Part shown: positions 31,646-49,539 of the stretch, one piece after another
Position numbering within the stretch: position 1 is the first letter of the stretch
How the letters are laid out: every line of letters begins with the position of its first letter
Origin: Mustelus asterias
Lineage: Eukaryota
Length of the DNA stretch: 64,000 nucleotides
Assembly: GCF_964213995.1 (NCBI RefSeq)
Contig: NC_135830.1
Span: 1,612,001-1,676,000 of the forward strand
Direction of reading: 5' to 3'
The notes under the pieces: generated by a model
The model's database searches: none
What the model was told of the DNA's origin: nothing
The model's input: the letters and a program-made list of their open reading frames with translations, nothing else
Program-made: the position numbers and the translations under genes

Positions 31646-34600
31646 CGCAATGCCGTAATTCAAAATAAAAATGTAAATGCGATTGCATTAAGGTTCAGAC
31701 ATAACAAGGCAGTTCAATTCCTGTAATAAAGACGCTCTCAATATCCTAGATATTGGAAGATGGTCATACCACAGCCTAATGTCCAGTTCCATGACCACAT
31801 TTCCAGCATCTCTCCATATTATTGACACTTCTATTGCTTATATCCTCTTCATTGAGTCCCAGTCACTCACCGATCACCCTGTCCTCACTTACCCACAGAG
31901 GCTCCTGGTTGAACAGCAACTCAATTTAAAATTCTCATCCATCCTGTCATATCTCTCCATGACATGATTTTTCCCCTTTTCCAGTCATACAGATGTTTGA
32001 ATCTTTTTCCGCAGGCACACTTATAATCATGAAATCCTTACAGTGCGGAAGGACGCCATTCAGCCCACTAAGTCTGCACCAATAGAGCATTTTACCCAAG
32101 TCCTTTCTTCATAACCCCACTTATTTACCCTGCTAAATCTCCCTAACCTACACATCTTTCGATGCTCGTGGAAATTTAGCATGACCAATCAACCTAACCC
32201 ACAATGTTTGCTTTGAGCTTTCCATATTTAAATCCTGATCTTCTAACATCCTGTAAATCCTAAGTCCAAGATGAAATTCAATTCATTCAATATTTCATCT
32301 CGACATGGAACAGTGAGACTCTCCATTGAACTGGTGATAAACTTGAGTTTATCTGAATTCATGTCCTCTGCACTGAGTCCCATTGCATGTGATAGATATT
32401 TCTATCACATGCATTAAGCGCATAATCTCACATAGCGGCTACAGGGCATTTCTTTTGTGTAAGATGAACTCTGGGAATAACGGGATAGTCGGAATAGTGA
32501 TGGGCTTCTGAAAGCAAACTTGAGTCTGTCGGTTACTTCCTCTCTCAGCTCGTTCTGGGTAACAGCTTTTTCCTTTTTAAAGACAGATGCAAATTTCTCG
32601 TTTCATATATTGGCTACTTCTCATGTCTGCCAGTCCAAATCTGCCTGTACATCCCGAACGTGCCTTACGCTTTGTTTTTTTTTTCAAACCACCCTTTTGT
32701 TAATTATATGCTTAGAACAGGCTTTCGTATTCTATTCTTCTTTTTCAGCTGTCAATTTATTTTCATTCCCCCTCCTTGCTGTTCTTATAGGTTCATGCAC
32801 ATCCCCTCTGTTCCTTCTGTATTCATCTGTATTTCCTCTGCATTTTCGACCTAAACCTCGTCGTACACGACTTCTTCCTTTTCATCTTCATCTCTATCTC
32901 TCGCGTCATTCAGGGCATTCTGGCTTTATTTGCCCTTCAAGGAAAAAAGTCTTGATATTTCTTGCAAAACATGTTTGCAAAAAAAGATGGCCCATTGTTC
33001 TGCCACCATTTTATTTCCCAACAATTGATTTCACCACGCTTGACACAGATGCATTTTGATGCCATCGATGTTGACTTCACCTCAACTGATTATCCCTGTT
33101 CATGGTTGTTTCTTGACTGTTTGCATGGTCAACAGAAACGTTGTGACTCAATGACCAGTGTCAACTAAATACTCTGCTGCTCAAATTTGATGCAATGGAG
33201 CTAACTGTTCGACATAATTATGTCCAACAGCACAGTAGCGGTCTTGTTAGAGAGAAGTCATGCTGCTGCCGAAAATAATATCTTGAACACATTCCAGGAA
33301 ATCACTCTTGTCATCTTGTATGATTCCTATGCAGTCCAGATTTGGATAATTGAAGTGCCCCTTTATAGTTAACTTTCAATTCATACAGCTCCGGGTAATT
33401 TATTTTCAAATTCGTAACGATACTATTCATGAATAGTATCGCACAGCAGAAACCTCACCCAGGAAGCCGCTATAAACGAAAAAAAAATAGAATTATTTTG
33501 CATTTACAAAAAAGACAACACCCAGAGAGTCCCACTTGTGCTTAAGAACCAAGACTATAAGGGATATCTAAAATAATCGATTTCTCCAGAACATTGAAGG
33601 TGAGGAGCTGGTCAATTCTGTTACAAAAATGAGGCTATGGAAAGGAAAGACTGATGTAAATGTTACTCAAGCTAAGTGACATTGAATGTCACCTGGCAAT
33701 CCAAGAGGCGGCATTCATACAGAATTCAGGCCATTTCTTACCTCAGGATGTATTTACTTCTGCGTTGTTTAGTGTTTTAAAAGTAAGTAAAAATGGGTTT
33801 CAAATAATTAAGGTTTTAAACATCCTACTGTGCTCTAAAGTATTCAAAACCTCTTAGAACACCCATGTGCCCTTCAAGAGGCTTTTACCTTCTCTCAGAG
33901 GATCGTGCATCTCCGGAGCTGTGCTCCTCAAAAGGCAGTGGAAGAAGTGTCAGAATACCTTTTAAGGTAGGGCTAGACAGATTCTTGATAAACATCGTGG
34001 TTTAGATTAGCCATGACCTTACTGAATGGTGGAGCAGGCACGGGACGCCGAGTGGCCTATTCCTGGCTCTAAATTTGTATGTTCGTCTGAATTCGCAATT
34101 GACTCCAATGGGCTACGAGTGAGGCTTCTCATGTGGCTGGGGGAGCAGCTTCCTTGGAACCTCACCATCCAGCTCTGGCTAACAGATTATTCTGTTCCTG
34201 GGGCATGCTGCAGTCAATGGTTGAAATGATGCCACAAACCATTGAATTAGTAATATCTGCATATTTAACAGCAGTTGAGTTTGAAATACCTTTGATTCAC
34301 CCCTGCCCGCAAAATCCAGGTCAAATGTGTTGAGCAAGAAAGACAGTTTGTATCCTATGGCAATATTCAGGTTTTCCACTTGAGACCTGTCAAACTCCCT
34401 GAAAAATATTGCATTCCAGCAAAACATAAACACTAGTCATGAGGCAACTGTATTAATCTGTCTCCCGCTTTTCAATTGAAGTAAAAATATCCAATGAGCT
34501 AATTACATCCCTGCAGCATGACATAGGATAAAAAATGTGCCAATCCTTCAGTGTTGTGCAGATCACGCTCAGAGTCTCCTATAGAAATGCACGGATTACC

Positions 34601-35264
34601 AACAGGCATTTGTTATTTATTACCCAATCCTTGCAGCTATCGGGATACCAGGTAAAGTATTGAATTTAATTATCGGGATGGGAATCGCCTGGAAACTGAC
34701 TAATTTCTACCATTTCAGAGGATCGCAATTCCACCACATGGGGCATCCTTTCTTCCATTTACAGGAATACATTTTCCATTGCACTTTATATTGCTCATCA
34801 GTTTATGGACAAAACCGGAATATAATTTTCGGCACACACAGCATTGATCATTCCAATTTCTTGGTATAAATTCTTAATTTTATCCATATACTTTGTTTCC
34901 TTTGCTACCATTGTTTTCCGTTGTGTTTGGTGCAATTTTAGCAAGTTACCGGCATTACATTTCGTTGTTAGTGCAATTTCAGGTTTTAGTGGGAGCCGGT
35001 GGCGTAGTGGTATTATCGCTACTATTGCAAACACCCAGTTTAATGGTTTTGAGGGGTCGGGGGGCGGCGGTCGGGGTTCGAATCTACGTGCATATCGCGA
35101 AGTCTGAATGCTTGGAAATAATGTAACTTTTCTTTCTTGCTAATAAAAACCCATCTGGTTCGCTAAAGCAAAGGAAACTTGTCACACTTAACTGTCCTAC
35201 ATGTGATTCCAGACTCGGAGAAATGCCCTCTGAAAGAGCCTGGCGAAGTTTATGTTAAAGTTTA

Positions 35265-35490
35265 AGTTTATTTCTTAGTGTCACGAGTAGGCTTACATTC
35301 ACACTGCGATGAAGTCACTGTGAAAATCCCCTAGTCACCACATTCCACCGCCTGTATGGTACACTGATGGAGAATTTAGCATGGCGAATGTTCCTAACCA
35401 GCAATTCTTTCAGACTATGGGAGGAAACCAGAGCACCCAGAGGAAATCCACGCAAACATGGTCAGAACGTGCAGATTCCGCGCAGACATC
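35265..35490 (-). mobile_element. HE1-like V-SINE type 2 (headless)
   Basis: V-domain plus type 2 tail. Confidence 0.78.
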
Positions 35491-35699
35491 TAGCCACTGA
35501 GTTGCAGGGCAAAATTAGAGTTAGGCAATAAATGCTGCCTCAGCCAGCGAAGACCACGTCTCCTGAACGAACATATATATATATTTTAAAATCCTGTTGA
35601 TATAGTTTTTTGTATGTTAGTGGCATAATCTTACCATATTGATAGTGTAATTTCTCGCTATTCGTGCTGGAATATTTTACGCTGTTAACCCTGCAATGT

Positions 35700-35885
35700 A
35701 TCCAAAGTTGTGCGAGTTAGGTTGATTGGCCATGCTAAAAATTGCCCTTAGTGTCCTGGGATGCGTAGGTTAGAGGGATTAGTGGGTAAATATGTAAGGA
35801 TGTGGGGATACGGCCTGGGTGGGATTGTGGTCGGTGCAGACTCGATGGGCCGAATGGCCTCTTTCTGTGCTGTAGGGTTTCTTTC
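35700..35885 (+). mobile_element. HE1-like V-SINE type 1, 3' half
   Basis: Very similar to 48330-48500. Confidence 0.82.
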
Positions 35886-36480
35886 TTTCTAAGTATCCTC
35901 TTTAACTTAACATCCCTTGCATATACTTAATGCTTTCTCTGTATACATTCTTCTTTGAATCCGTTGTCATTTTCTCACATTACTCTTTTAATTTCACCGA
36001 ATTACTTTTAGCATAGCATCGTGTCATTCTGTTGGTATAGAATGTTGTATAGATTATTGTGGATGAATTGCCCAACTGATATCGCCATGATAATGTATTT
36101 CAAGTTTTATTATTGTCACCTTTATTGTTGGTTAACATGATGTGATTAAGGTGCAAATATAATTCTGTTCTGCCTTTGTACTGTTATTGTGTGTGCTTTC
36201 TCCCACTGTTACCGCAATGCAACTGTCTTTGTAGAATGTTGACTGCAGAAAATTTTCAACAGCGAATTATTTTGCTCTTTTCTGTAATGACTTAACTTTT
36301 TGGGTTATTCCACGCTTCTATGGTAGTTTCCCTGTGATTTTAATATGGTTTTATTCTCTGTCAGTTTTCATTCTATGATTTAACATTTCTGTTATTGATC
36401 TGCTTTCTTGTTAATTCTGCTGACGATACAAAAAACAGAAATAATTACCCATGACAAATGCCAAAGTTGGCAACATGTGA

Positions 36481-36978
36481 CAGATGAGATTGAAAGAGTG
36501 CAGAGAAGGTTCACAAGGATGTTGCCGGGACTTGAGAAGCTGAGTTACAGAGAGAGATTGAATAGGTTGGGACTTTATTCCCTGGAGCGTCGAAGATTGA
36601 GGGGAGATTTGATAGAGGTGTATAAGATTTTGATGGGTATAGATAGAGTGAATGCAAGCAGGCTTTTTCCGCTGAGGCTAGGGGAGAAAAAACCAGAGGG
36701 CATGGGTTAAGGGTGAAAGGAGAAAAGTTTAAAGGGAATATTAGGGGAGGCTTCTTCACGCAGAGAGTGGTGGGAGTGTGGAATGAGCTGCCGGATAAAG
36801 TGGTAAATGCTTTTACCATTTAAGAACAACTTGGACGGGTTCATGGATGAGAGGGGTGTGGAGGGATATGGTCCAAGTGCAGGTCAGTGGAACTAGGCAC
36901 AAAATGGTTCGGCACAGACAAGAAGGGCCAAAAGGCCTGTTTCTGAGCTGTAATTTTCTATGGTTCTATGGTTCTATG
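36481..36978 (+). mobile_element. CR1-type LINE 3' end in the intron of pseudogene C
   Basis: ERVQRRFTRMLPG...; (ttctatgg)n tail. Confidence 0.88.
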
Positions 36979-38185
36979 TGGATTGCATGCAGGATCCTGT
37001 AAAGTTGATAATTTCTCTTAGAATTCGAGCTTTAACTCTTAAGGCACGCATTCTGTCAGTCTCTACCCCTTCTCTCTTTGTTGCAGCTGACGTGGTGGTG
37101 ATTTGATTCTGTCCCAAGGAAAATGCAATCTCTCCAAATGTCTAACTTACCACTTGGTGTCAATGGAAGTAATAGATCTGCTCGTCAATATAACAGCTGT
37201 GATACTGAACGGAATTGCTGGTATTTATTTTCCATTCAGTACCCTGTCGATCACTCCAATATGCAGTCTCTGTATTGCACCAATATATTCAGCAATGGAT
37301 GGTTCTACTTGGTTAACTGTGGCTTTCATCTTTGATCGATTTGTGGCCATTTTTTTGCTCGAAGGTTAAAACTAAAAAGTGCTCCATCAAAACGGCAGCA
37401 CAACCGATAGGGCCTGTCTGCTCACTGAGCCGTCGAAAGAACATCTTCTTATACTTTATTCATGAACCATTGTACACAATGAGTGATGTACCCCGCTGCT
37501 GCGACATAAAACAGATATTTAATACTTTGTCTGCATGGGTCACCTGTGAGTGGATACATCACATTTTAACCCCTTGCTTTCCATTGATTCTGATTCTATT
37601 GCTCAATGTCTTGACTGTCAGACACATTCTGGCAGGAGATTCCGGACCCAGAAGAATGAAAAGAGTCAGAGTGACCCAGAGATGGAGAAGCAGAGAAAGT
37701 CCATCGTTTTACTCTTCTGTGTGATAGGAAGTTTCATTCTGTTATATCTGTTGTTTCTTATAACTTTCCATTGTGTTCAATTTACCAGGCTCCGAACACG
37801 GTGAATCAGCATTCATTCCAGAGGAAAATGAATATATACTTCAGCGTTTAAGTTCCTGTATGAATGCATGTTATATGCAGGGACCCAGAGGAAACTCAGA
37901 GATGAGTTAAAGAATGGGGTAAAATATCTACTATGGCCAACTATTAAAATTGTTCAGTGATGAATATTAAAATCCAGCATGATTTTCACACCAGATTCCA
38001 TCCTGTGTTTTTCTTGCCCAGGTATACATGGTCTTCCACATTTTGTACACAGTGACACAGTTTGAGAAACATGACCACTGTCTAAATTTAAGATCTTTAT
38101 CAATTAAGGGGTGATGCGTCAGTGTAAAACGCGTGCAGAAAACTGTTCAGTTATTTGTAATTTTCGATCTTTGAAGTGAATGATG

Positions 38186-38710: not shown

Positions 38711-41374
38711 AGGGGTGGATCTCAGAGAGAGGATCTCTGGGGTAACGTGCCGTGAGTTCATGGGAGGGGCGGGGGGGGGGTGGGTCCGTGGGATCAGTGG
38801 GAATAGAGCAGGGAGAGAGGATCCTTTCGGCGTTGCTTTGTATGTTCTGGTAGTGGTAACGGAGGGCATGGAGCAGGGAGGGAGGATCCCTCGGGTGATG
38901 TTCCGTAAGCTCTGGCTTTGGTAATACAGAGGATGGAACTTTTAAGGTAGAAATTCGTCACCGAAACCAGAAGGTGAGGGAAACGTAATTAGCATCTCAT
39001 AAAATTGGAAGCAGACATTCAGTACCTACCTGACATACAGTGGTTTATTTGCATCGACAGAACAAAGGTTCTGTGTATTTGAAGCAATTTTGAAGCTACA
39101 ATTCTTCTATCTGATAGGCTCCCTTCTGTGGGGGAAAATTCAATTTTAAAGCTTGCTTGTTGATGCCAGACATCCACAGTCATCCATTATTCTTGATGGA
39201 TCACACACTGTGTGAATCAACGACTTTCCACTCGATAACATGTGTCCGATCGATAGTTGTTTCAGGGTATTATCCCACTGTTTGTGTTATTTCTGAGTAA
39301 CATGTTTCGAATGTGAGGTCAGTGCCTTTGTATGTGTTCAGTGAAACAAGGCACAGAGAATTTAGTCGAACGTTGTGGGGGCAGAGTGAAATCCCAAAGT
39401 GGTAGCTTTGAAATTCGAATTCGATCAATATAATCTAGAAAGGAAATGAGGCACAATAATATGGCCATGACAATTGTTGTGAAGTTGAGTTAATAAAGGT
39501 GAAAAAAATATCTGTAAAGAATGTAAGATACTCGAGGGGAAACAACAGTACATGGTCACTTTAAAAGCTGTTTTTTTGTCATTATCTTTAAAAGCTGGTT
39601 TTGTGTCAATGCCTTCAAAAACTGGTTGTGTTCAATGCTTGAATGTTCACATACAAGGCAAACAGGGTAAAAAAGAGTGCAACATTGTTGTACCAAAAGC
39701 CAGACAACAGGGTAGCGTTGGTAACAGACTCTGCAGGTTTTTGCATATTGTTATCCTATGAGTTTAAAGAAAACACTCAGCTAAAGGGAACCTTTCAGAT
39801 CTGAATTTGCTGTTGTTGACAGCATCAAACCAATCCAGATGTAGAAAATGCATTGTTCATCAGGAATATAAATATAGGAATTCAACTGCCTGCCTTCAGT
39901 GACTCCAGTTTAGTCTGTGAGAACATCACTCGGGCCAAGCCAGAGTCAGATCAGCGGAAGCAGTTAAAGGCAGTCAAGAGCAATTATATCAATTGGAGCA
40001 GTTAGTTTATAACGCTGCCAGCTTCGGATAGTCTGAAGATAACTCACGCTCTAACCAGTGAAAGGTTCCAAATTAGGCATTGCTTACCGAAAAACTCCAA
40101 AACTTCTGCACGCTATAAAACCTTGTTGCATAATTTATTTGAGAGTGACCAAAAATTATGTTATTACTGTTTTGGTAATGAATGTTCCGTGCGTTTATTT
40201 GAACAGCATTTCAGTCGGAAATGTCCGTTAATTAAAATGTTATTTGTTCAGTTAAAGTTTCGGTTGGTTAAATAAAATAACTTGTTAATTGCTCACTTTA
40301 AGCGAGTGTCAGGTCTTTATATTAATGAACATCTAAACGTTAAGGTAGAACAGTTAACATCTTGTGAAACACTTCTGTCAGATTACGAAGCGCAATAAGG
40401 GGGATTAACCTCTGTGTTGAAACACAATTATCAGCGATTATTGTAACATTCCTTGTGGTCCTGTTTGAAGATAGTAATCTGCCAAACTTCTGGCCTGGCT
40501 TGCAAAGGACGCCAGATCCACAATAATGCATGTGATTGCCACATGGCCGCTGAAAGGGCCGAGAAAGCCAGGCAGTACAAGGACAATTAGTAATGGCCCT
40601 GCCAGAAACATCCGCATCCCATAAAATGCAAGGAAAAGAAATGCATCACTCTGTACCGACTCTGGGATTGATAACTAGAATAGTGTTCAGGAAGAGGTAT
40701 TCTTCCACATTCTACATATCTGCATCCGGCAAAGCAATGCCTCTGCTGCTGAATTGTCTGACAGAGTGTGACAGACAATAGTCTCAGTAAAATCACGGGC
40801 GTTTTCTTCGCTGTTCAATCGTTCTTTCTCTGGAGTTTACCATTAAAAGGCCAAGGTAACGGTGCCTTTACACGGCTGAGTGGATCAGTGAATCTTTCAC
40901 TGAAGACCCTGGATTTTCAACACATCCGAGACTGGACCGATGAAATGCACATCCCTGGCAATGTGGGGAAAACCGCTTAGGAGGTAAAATTGAGCTCTGT
41001 CGATGAATCATGCAGGAAGGGCTTCAGTACAGCCATATTTAATAGATCCACATCATTGCAGACTGGCCCCTGTCAAAATTCGGCGGAGGGGTCAGAGGAG
41101 TCAGTTTAGCCACCTTGGACCCTGACGCGGTGAATGCTTCACGCATAAGTATTCTAATAGTTCAGTTCATATCAAGCTTTATTAAAATTGCAGTGAACAT
41201 TTCAAAGTTAACTAAAATGAGTATAACATTTAAGCATCGATCTGAGAACATAAAGCGTGTGCGCTGAGCTGACAACACTATGGAGAACCGTAACCAACAC
41301 CAGAAAGAGGAAGCAGGATTCCCAAATAAAGAGAAGTGAATACCTGTGAGGCAGTAGTGAAACAAGTTATAATC

Positions 41375-41742
41375 ATAGAAATAAAGAATCCCTAAAGTGG
41401 AGAAGAAGGCAATTCGGCCCATCAATTCTTAGAATCTTAGAGAACTTTAGAGAGGCCATTCGGCCCATCGAGTCTGCACCGACCAGAATCCCACCCAGGC
41501 CCTATCCCCATATCCCTACAATTTAAGCATCCCAGGACACTAAGGGCAATTTTAGCATGGCCAATCAACCTAACCCGCACATCTTTGGACCGTGGGAGGA
41601 AACCAGAGCACCCGGAGGAAACCCACACAGACACGAAGAGTCGTGCAAACTCCACACAGACAGCGACCCAAGCCGGGAATCGAATCCAGGTCCCTGGAGC
41701 TGTGAAGCAGCAGTGCTCACCATTGTGCTACCGTGCCGCCCT
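41375..41742 (-). mobile_element. HE1-like V-SINE type 1 (young subfamily, with an extra tail fragment)
   Basis: Very similar to 48175-48512. Confidence 0.88.
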
Positions 41743-41947
41743 AGCAGATTTCGTTCCCATGGGAACATTACTGAGTCAAGGGTTTTTTCCAACAATGGAC
41801 TGCGGATTCATGGTCATCAGTGGATTTTTCCTTCCAGATCATTTTTTGTTGGTTGAATTCAAATTCTACCAGCTGTCATGGCGGGTCCCCAGAACATCAG
41901 CTGGTTTAGCGATAATACCACTAGGCCATCATCTCACCGAAAACATT

Positions 41948-42042
41948 TGCTGTAGGTGAGACTCGAACTCACAACCTGGGCATAGTGCACTGGCAGCACT
42001 GCTGTATAAGTACCACACACTAACCAATTGTGCCACTGAAGC
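41948..42042 (-). tRNA. tRNA-Ile(UAU) pseudogene retaining its intron
   Basis: GCTTCAGTGGCACAATTGGTTAGTGTGTGGTACTTATA-[cagcagtgctgccagtgcact]-ATGCCCAGGTTGTGAGTTCGAGTCTCACCTACAGCA. Collinear with vertebrate tRNA-Ile-TAT, intron after position 37. Most differences are CpG decay; the acceptor stem is mismatched. Confidence 0.85.
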
Positions 42043-42059
42043 ATTGCTACACGGACTCT

Positions 42060-42345
42060 GCACAGACTCTGCACAGACTCTGCAACAGAGCATCTCACCC
42101 AGGCCCGATCACAATAACACCTGTTGATACCCCACTAATCCCCTAACCCACACAACAATTTAACAAGGCCTGGGCACCTAACCTGCACATTTTTGGGCTG
42201 TGGGAGGAAACCAGAGCACTCGGAGGAAACCAGCGCAGAGACATGGCGAACGTGCAAACTCCTCACAGATAGTCACCCAAGGCCAGAATTGAACCTGGCT
42301 TCATAGCACTGTGAGGCTGCAGTGGTACCCACTGTTACGCCCCCA
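42060..42345 (-). mobile_element. HE1-like V-SINE type 1 (diverged)
   Basis: Head and V-domain, just downstream of TM2. Confidence 0.75.
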
Positions 42346-42569
42346 TATTTACAGATGCAATTGGAACAGGAAAATTATAAGCTACCCTTATAAAATGACC
42401 ATCAGCATCTCGCACATTTCAAACATGAAGAAAAACATAATTATAGTCCATTATTGTTTCAGTTACACATCGAAATCGTAAATGAAAGGCATTTTGCAGT
42501 CAGAGGAGGCAAGAGCTAATATTCCATTTGTATCATGTAGAGAACTTGAAACTTCAAGCTGAGCAAAAT

Positions 42570-42602
42570 TCACGAAATGTAAAAATCAACTGACCATTTG
42601 AC
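42570..42602 (-). CDS. IGHM: IgM cytoplasmic exon TM2, extended (VKWSVDFYIS*)
   Basis: After a 140-nt intron, strong acceptor tttatctctcccttacag followed by GTC AAA (VK), then TGG where a stop is expected. The frame runs to TGA at 42572-42570. Confidence 0.75.
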   Translation of the reverse strand, partial: VKWSVDFYIS

Positions 42603-42742
42603 CTGTAAGGGAGAGATAAATTACTGAAGCAGATGTGTTTAATTTGGGGCATTTTCACAACGAATATTAATCATTGAAACTTTCAGAGATTTTTCAAACC
42701 GACTCAGTCAGTTTGAAGTGTGGGTCGATTGCATCTTCTCAC

Positions 42743-42870
42743 ATTCATCAGGGTGAGGGCCGCACTGTAGGACATGCTCAGGAAGAACAGGATGATGAAT
42801 GTGAATGCGGTTGTCCAGCCTTTACCGTTATCTTCTGGATATTTTTCCATCCAGGTTTGGTCTGTTAAAT
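42743..42870 (-). CDS. IGHM: IgM transmembrane exon TM1
   Basis: Acceptor tatccttgtag, phase 1 matching the CH4 internal donor. (D)LTDQTWMEKYPEDNGKGWTTAFTFIILFFLSMSYSAALTLMN, with the conserved antigen-receptor TM motif (W..A.TFI.LF.LS..YS). Donor AAT|GTGAGA. Confidence 0.92.
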
Positions 42871-49105: not shown

Positions 49106-49120
49106 TTTATTACTTTTATT
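49106..49120 (-). terminator. Tandem AATAAA polyadenylation signals of the secreted mu mRNA
   Basis: Plus-strand TTTATT at 49106-49111 and 49115-49120, about 40-50 nt downstream of the secretory stop. Confidence 0.8.
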
Positions 49121-49156: not shown

Positions 49157-49539
49157 TTAATTCACTGTGTCCATCAGTGCAAGGGAAATGTTCACAAAAC
49201 TCGGTTTACCAGTGGATTTATTCAGCGTGCTGCTGATAATCTTCAGGGGAAGAGCTTCATGTCCCACCACACAGGAGTAAGAAGCGCCGCTGGCCCACTC
49301 CTCTGATGCAATGGATAACAGGCTGTACATGACGAAGGTCCGATTGCCGTTCTCCGCCATCACCTCAGTGTTCTTATAGTTTCCGGGATTCAACAACGTG
49401 TCATTGATGGTCCACTTGACGAAGATTTCTCGGGGGAAGAAGCCTCTCACTAAGCAGCTGAGGGAGATAAATCTCTGAGAGGAGACTTCTTGTGCCGAGG
49501 GCAGCAGCAAATACACAGAAGGTTTCAGCGGGTTTTTTG
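49157..49539 (-). CDS. IGHM: IgM heavy chain CH4 with secretory tailpiece, truncated before the penultimate Cys
   Basis: Acceptor atttcctgcag. [43 protein letters not shown]...[40 protein letters not shown]. Internal donor G|GTAAAC at 49210/49209 for the membrane form. Stop TAA 49159-49157 is followed directly by TGT. Confidence 0.95.

Follow-up and report, generated by a model that had tools for sequence, protein, structure and literature searches.

Few features of the B-cell receptor (BCR) are as constant as the cytoplasmic tail of membrane mu chains, which is three residues long. An IgM heavy-chain gene on the minus strand of the window (the whole stretch of 64,000 nucleotides of Mustelus asterias DNA that was analysed) is predicted to end its membrane form in a longer tail that contains a tyrosine. 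This raises the question of where such a tail comes from, whether the gene that carries it is alive and the tail is joined to its receptor by splicing, and whether the tail has a role of its own.

Membrane exons and the origin of the extension

The TM1 exon (42743..42870, minus strand) encodes a divergent connecting peptide and a conserved helix with a YS motif, and it ends in LTLMN at the donor AAT/GTGAGA (42743/42742), its last codon being AAT (Asn) where AAG (Lys) is usual. After an intron of 140 nt (42603..42742, minus strand), which closes with the acceptor sequence CCTTACAG directly ahead of the next exon, the coding part of TM2 (42570..42602) is translated on the minus strand as VKWSVDFYIS-stop; it comprises VK, TGG at the codon of the old stop (42596-42594), former 3'UTR sequence, and TGA at 42572-42570. 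The predicted tail is N followed by VKWSVDFYIS, i.e., 11 residues with one lysine. These exon readings agree with the original prediction, and the YS motif, which it had described as retained, aligns with the mu TM segments of human and mouse in solved BCR structures. The 3'UTR of the membrane transcript contains an insertion block of approximately 0.93 kb (41415..42345, approximate boundaries) that we take to be SINE-like from its tRNA-derived pattern. Homology to the paralogs returns beyond this block, and the first AATAAA 3' of TM2 (41178..41183, minus strand) lies within sequence homologous to the paralog polyadenylation region, close to the site used there.

TM2 of this gene aligns codon for codon with TM2 of its paralogs, with TGG where they have TGA, and the extension continues without a gap into the first 3'UTR codons of those paralogs. 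Because of this alignment, the extension is former 3'UTR read after a TGA-to-TGG stop loss, as had been proposed for the eight added residues. If the stops of the paralogs are hypothetically read through, 27 of 29 loci give 7-13 extra residues (0 and 66 in the remaining two), and six of these UTR frames would stop at the same codon as the tail described here; the length of the tail is therefore what the UTR offers.

Among paralogs such a tail is rare. The TM region is single copy, with approximately 70% identity to the best paralogs among the 40 of 339 candidates that were scored. All 29 paralog loci fetched combine a TM1 end AAG/GTGAGA with a TM2 that reads IK-stop, which makes KIK the common tail. 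When the exact pattern was counted genome-wide, TGA followed the lysine in 250 TM2 exons and was missing from three, namely this gene and two fragments that have no TM1; the pattern omits divergent copies, and many of the 250 matches are probably fragments or duplicate haplotypes. In a set of 27 aligned loci picked for divergence, TM2 has two or three codons in 24 (IK in ten, VE in nine, and VK, LK, FE, VG, and AGD in one each), and three read through by small deletions. No C exons are present in the 10-20 kb checked upstream of these three loci, and two of them lack TM1.

Outside this genome, seven of seven retrieved elasmobranch membrane-mu proteins end in three residues, KVK or KIE. The paralog count and these proteins speak against the possibility, raised beforehand, that the extension is the normal state of shark mu genes; the typical three-residue tail (K-V/I-K/E) was lost here through a point mutation. 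The assumption that KVK is the usual mu tail stood in part: three residues are the norm, but in this genome the usual form is KIK (29/29 loci). Four automated elephant shark models (P0034, P0035, P0041, P0043) have longer tails, two of them with Tyr, but were set aside as likely mis-spliced because a further model, P0050, ends in KVE. Titles and abstract openings of the papers retrieved describe no extended shark mu tail; these do not establish its absence from print, and the main primary papers may show tail variants.

There are far more TM2-type matches (250) than Cmu4 matches (approx. 100), and many of the former are on contigs that have no C exons. This excess points to an amplified repeat in which a TM2 fragment is included (e.g., L090 and L091, which lack TM1). 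TM2 exons of IgW or IgNAR were not identified with confidence. The divergent TM loci L113, L117, L119-L122, L126, L128, and L130 end in KVE, L121 and L122 being without an acceptor AG, and at L116 one TM1 is followed by two TM2-like exons (IK-stop and VK-stop) approximately 480 nt apart.

That the tail is an assembly or sequencing error is extremely unlikely. The gene is single copy in an assembly in which many clusters occur twice, and the supporting contigs are of low depth (3-5), which would suit such an error; however, a contig from another sample of the same species (X3, record 2) covers 42503-42765 with 0 differences, and one from a third sample (X4) covers 42463-42613, also with 0 differences, although it reaches just 19 bases past the TGG on one side. 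Moreover, a related species (organism B) is identical at TGG. One contig of organism B, at a depth of 3.2, spans all 656 bases compared, with 29 differences and no gap; 23 of the 29 differences are placed by position, and the list is complete over TM2. TGG, the Tyr codon, the final stop, and the length of the extension are all kept. Two of the 24 extension bases differ, and both differences change a residue (codon 6, Asp to Glu; codon 10, Ser to Pro). Position 42743 is not among the 23 placed differences of 29, which implies that organism B probably also lacks the G of the paralogs at this donor base. Intron divergence between the two species is 4.6% (152/3312 bases). Sharing with organism B dates the stop loss but shows no selection. 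An orthologue-like contig of organism C covers the 3'UTR only; a protein search with TM1 alone gave 15 candidates, none of them scored, and searches with Cmu4 and Cmu3 found no close orthologue (best 79% and 69%).

Splicing and motif content of the tail

Since the last codon of TM1 has changed from Lys to Asn (AAG to AAT), the donor has T instead of G at -1, a base that is kept as G in 29 of 29 paralogs, while positions +1 to +6 equal theirs. T at -1 is also found in the Cmu1 donors of this shark IgM family, there together with GTAAGT. A T in this position weakens a donor, and it is conceivable, though improbable, that the membrane form mostly ends otherwise, either because the donor is skipped (tail NVRRCNRPTLQTD) or because an acceptor further downstream is chosen. 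The read-through frame stays open over 12 codons with no later junction, so that such a transcript would presumably escape decay, and a second acceptor-like site lies in the SINE-like block at 42197. On the other hand, all paralogs share donor positions +1 to +5 (GTGAG), organism B keeps both the 140-nt intron and the acceptor, and the read-through frames of the paralogs vary freely, i.e., without visible constraint. The TM2 acceptor is the only strong one in the first 400 nt past the donor. It had been foreseen that skipping the donor would not yield KVK, and the read-through product is indeed VRRCNRPTLQTD, with its stop ending at 42704. No second TM2-like exon exists within 19 kb, and no splice route examined gives VK-stop, which speaks against the concern that transcripts might reach this ending through another TM2 acceptor. 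We infer that the predicted junction 42743/42602 is still used despite the weakened AAT/GTGAGA donor.

The tyrosine lies two residues from the end of the chain (Y-I-S-stop) and lacks the YxN core of an ITT. ITIM and YxxPhi motifs are defined by a hydrophobic residue at Y+3, and an ITIM also by S/I/V/L at Y-2; here the protein ends at Y+2 and Y-2 is Asp. The original prediction was right to caution that the tyrosine fits none of these three motifs. Tails of mIgG, mIgE, and mIgY likewise exceed three residues and contain a tyrosine; however, YxN is reported to be kept in all known ITTs (PMC4263166), and an ITT tail needs YxN within approximately 28 residues (PMC4263166, PMC11789056), whereas the tail described here has 11 residues, ends in Y-I-S-stop, and shows no sign of conservation. 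IgM and IgG tails are described as having 3 and 28 residues with a common KVK, and IgA and IgE tails as lacking KVK (PMC11789056); for the latter reason, loss of KVK alone does not stop a receptor.

Compared with nine paralogs, 44-56% of the extension sites differ, against 26-38% in the intron, 32-59% in the UTR that follows, and 12-22% in the TM helix; the divergence of the extension is not significantly faster than that of non-coding sequence (Fisher p 0.19). In a neutral simulation at the local divergence of 4.7%, length and Tyr were kept in 72% of runs. There is no sign of selection on the extension, although both species retain the Tyr and two substitutions are too few to decide against selection on it. 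A selected role in signalling or trafficking, which would make the extension a parallel evolved independently in sharks to the tails of IgG, IgE, and IgY, is very unlikely. Stop loss, length, and Tyr are common to two species, an acidic and an aromatic residue precede the Tyr in both, and purifying selection on the gene together with loss of the tailpiece cysteine (see below) makes an IgG-like combination; but YxN, the Y+3 residue, and the ITIM context are absent, both changes between the species are non-synonymous, neutral drift keeps length and Tyr in 72% of runs, and the sequence derives from UTR and is conserved no better than UTR. The parallel with IgG and IgE signalling tails that had been implied is not supported, both for want of a sign of selection and on account of similar read-through in dead fragments.

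A divergent but intact IgM cluster

The gene has the layout of an IgM cluster, in which four Cmu exons are preceded by V, D, and J segments and their recombination signals. The variable part lies at locus L031, where a leader just past the window end (L031:1916-1871) is followed by a V fused to both D segments (L031:1750-1428), with a 12-bp-spacer signal behind it, and by a J (L031:1032-985) with a 23-bp-spacer signal, 395 nt from V-D-D. Six other clusters align well with its promoter region. At -1 of the leader donor, C replaces the G of the paralogs, and FR2 (L031:1750-985 region) reads WLRY versus WIRQ in the paralogs, a change at a VH-VL contact position. An assignment of the V to the IgW type was rejected, since its identity to V segments of mu clusters in this genome reaches 76%. 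In accordance with the mu class, Cmu4 and the tail are 67-82% identical to most mu clusters versus 44-47% to a more distant class, and in a tree of C domains the gene is nested among shark mu sequences, nearest to those of catshark and houndshark with weak support, a placement that points to a shark host, probably carcharhiniform.

The V-D-D join is likely germline. VDD-J joins have also been described as formed somatically in lymphocytes (PMC2435157), and partly joined shark IgH clusters (VD-J, VDD-J) are known (PMC5192425). The present gene is of the same kind as these partially germline-joined clusters, and its layout recurs in 3 of 29 other V loci examined. It resembles membrane mu of horn shark (P0007), catshark (P0004, P0010, P0055), and bamboo shark (P0009, P0013) in having four Cmu exons, the TM1/TM2 layout, and the YS helix, with a TM1 identity of 48-67%; these chains, however, end in KVK or KIE, whereas the window gene ends in N-VKWSVDFYIS and lacks the tailpiece cysteine. 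Nurse shark IgM1gj (P0017) is also divergent, with germline-joined variable segments, and is reported to be low-copy, to occur as monomer and dimer, and to be convergent with IgG (PMC5192425, PMC4279169). It differs in being fully VDJ-joined, without Cmu2 in the protein and with the tail cysteine kept, whereas the window gene has a VDD-J arrangement and its Cmu2 exon is intact. The two share 52-71% identity per domain. The best C-region tree does not pair them, although pairing is not rejected (AU p 0.09, 5000 replicates). Identity with IgM1gj was not supported; D and J of the window gene lie 395 nt apart with signals.

Many further IgM clusters are found on the contig, together with more distant heavy-chain genes, which resembles the elasmobranch antigen-receptor complex as described (PMC12227049). 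At L039-L041, approximately 75-110 kb beyond TM2 on the opposite strand, an intact divergent IgM cluster has a KVK tail and falls in the tree with catshark P0010 and the mu chain of horn shark. The part of the window downstream of the IgM gene holds an open 320-codon frame (7304-6345, minus strand) that is seven-transmembrane receptor-like by its motifs and broken pieces of a similar gene (34585-37800, plus strand). Upstream of Cmu1, 55940-57060 is purine-rich, G-rich on the minus strand. A database entry labelled Aeromonas veronii (P0011) is a shark IgM Cmu3-Cmu4 fragment and likely represents host contamination.

All on the minus strand, Cmu1 (54649..54948), Cmu2 (54130..54447), and Cmu3 (52475..52783) have open frames, and Cmu4 (49210..49539) runs to the internal donor CTG/GTAAAC of the membrane form. 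Over 392 codons of the C region, dN/dS on the branch leading to the window gene is 0.34 versus 0.37 in the background, with a value of 1 rejected (p 8e-9), in a tree of 13 sequences that leaves out loci with broken or missing exons. The TM helix, too, is under purifying selection (0.20; 25 codons, p 0.026), while the connecting peptide gives 1.5 (16 codons) and all 41 TM1 codons together 0.54, not different from 1 (p 0.23). Branch dN/dS averages over a branch that is approximately 10 times as long as the period after the split from organism B and, for this reason, cannot show that TM1 was still selected after the stop loss. Without selection since that split, the chance of 1782 coding nt and splice sites remaining intact is 0.02-0.11 (with a rough indel rate). 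The two contigs of organism B that hold Cmu1-3 show 80 differences, where 88 are expected under neutrality and 68 under constraint (neutrality p 0.23), and one single-base gap in the organism B contigs over the C region is unplaced.

With its single copy, open exons, and purifying selection, the gene is probably alive. The membrane form may nevertheless have decayed, leaving a gene that mainly or only secretes a semi-fixed antibody, or a young pseudogene in which tail, donor, and connecting peptide drift unread; such a state is unlikely, though several changes on the TM side do coincide: the G at donor -1 and the stop are lost, the acidic spacer is partly replaced (dN/dS 1.5), approximately 0.93 kb of insertions lie in the 3'UTR, and the leader donor is also without a G at -1. 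The count of differences from organism B in Cmu1-3 does not reject neutrality either. Against decay stand the low dN/dS of the TM helix on the branch of this gene, the kept acceptors, donor GT, and polyadenylation signal in a homologous region, the lack of any indel in 656 nt versus organism B, and a D-J join that is open with good signals, which would fit selection through a surface receptor. Signalling has been found to depend on the mu TM (PMC2119374), and sharks are reported to have CD79a (PMC4034164).

The secretory tailpiece and the two ends of the gene

A change that the original prediction missed lies in the secretory tail of the same gene. The tailpiece (49157..49210, minus strand) ends in MDTVN at a premature TAA (49159-49157; TCA in paralogs), which removes three terminal residues and with them the penultimate Cys; the old secretory stop beyond it is now TGG (49150-49148), and two AATAAA signals of the secreted transcript follow at 49106..49120 (minus strand). 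The penultimate Cys is kept in 18 of 21 paralog tails read and absent in L101, L105, and L047; these three include two broken clusters, the stop of L105 lies at the matching place, and the tail of L101 is shortened. The organism B contig over 49060-49196 has five differences, and the TAA and TGG positions are not among the two that are listed, so that this species probably shares both changes. According to published work, all shark isotypes conserve the tailpiece cysteine, which is critical for multimers (PMC8692893), and human IgM without it is reported to shift, incompletely, to monomers with less J-chain linkage (PMC11161108). Because the polymerisation cysteine is lost, the predicted secreted form of the gene is probably monomeric. 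Both ends of the gene have drifted from the pattern of the IgM family.

Taken together, the two ends might be read as an undescribed shark IgM subclass converging on IgG, with a monomer-only, cysteine-less tailpiece, a recruited Tyr tail that tunes BCR signalling or internalisation, and a semi-fixed, pre-joined V; this combination seems quite doubtful. It is rather likely, instead, that the tail is tolerated as a passenger and that the divergent IgM bearing it still works, with signalling through CD79. According to this preferred reading, a single-copy, divergent shark IgM gene has lost its TM2 stop by a change from TGA to TGG, and its membrane form would then carry eight residues from the old 3'UTR, provided that the weakened AAT/GTGAGA donor is still used. 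The receptor would reach the surface and signal with CD79, to which the kept helix and YS motif point, while the Tyr, two residues from the end, would presumably bind no SH2 domain. The same gene would secrete mainly monomers without the tailpiece cysteine.

Sharks possess monomeric and pentameric IgM, which are thought to come from the same genes. Monomeric IgM would have a genetic route in a cluster hard-wired without the polymerisation cysteine, and the cysteine-less secretory tail carries as much weight as the tyrosine. As it stands, the membrane tail looks unselected, and its value is accordingly moderate; nevertheless, a living cluster with a longer tail would indicate that a cytoplasmic tail can start through one base change that opens the 3'UTR.
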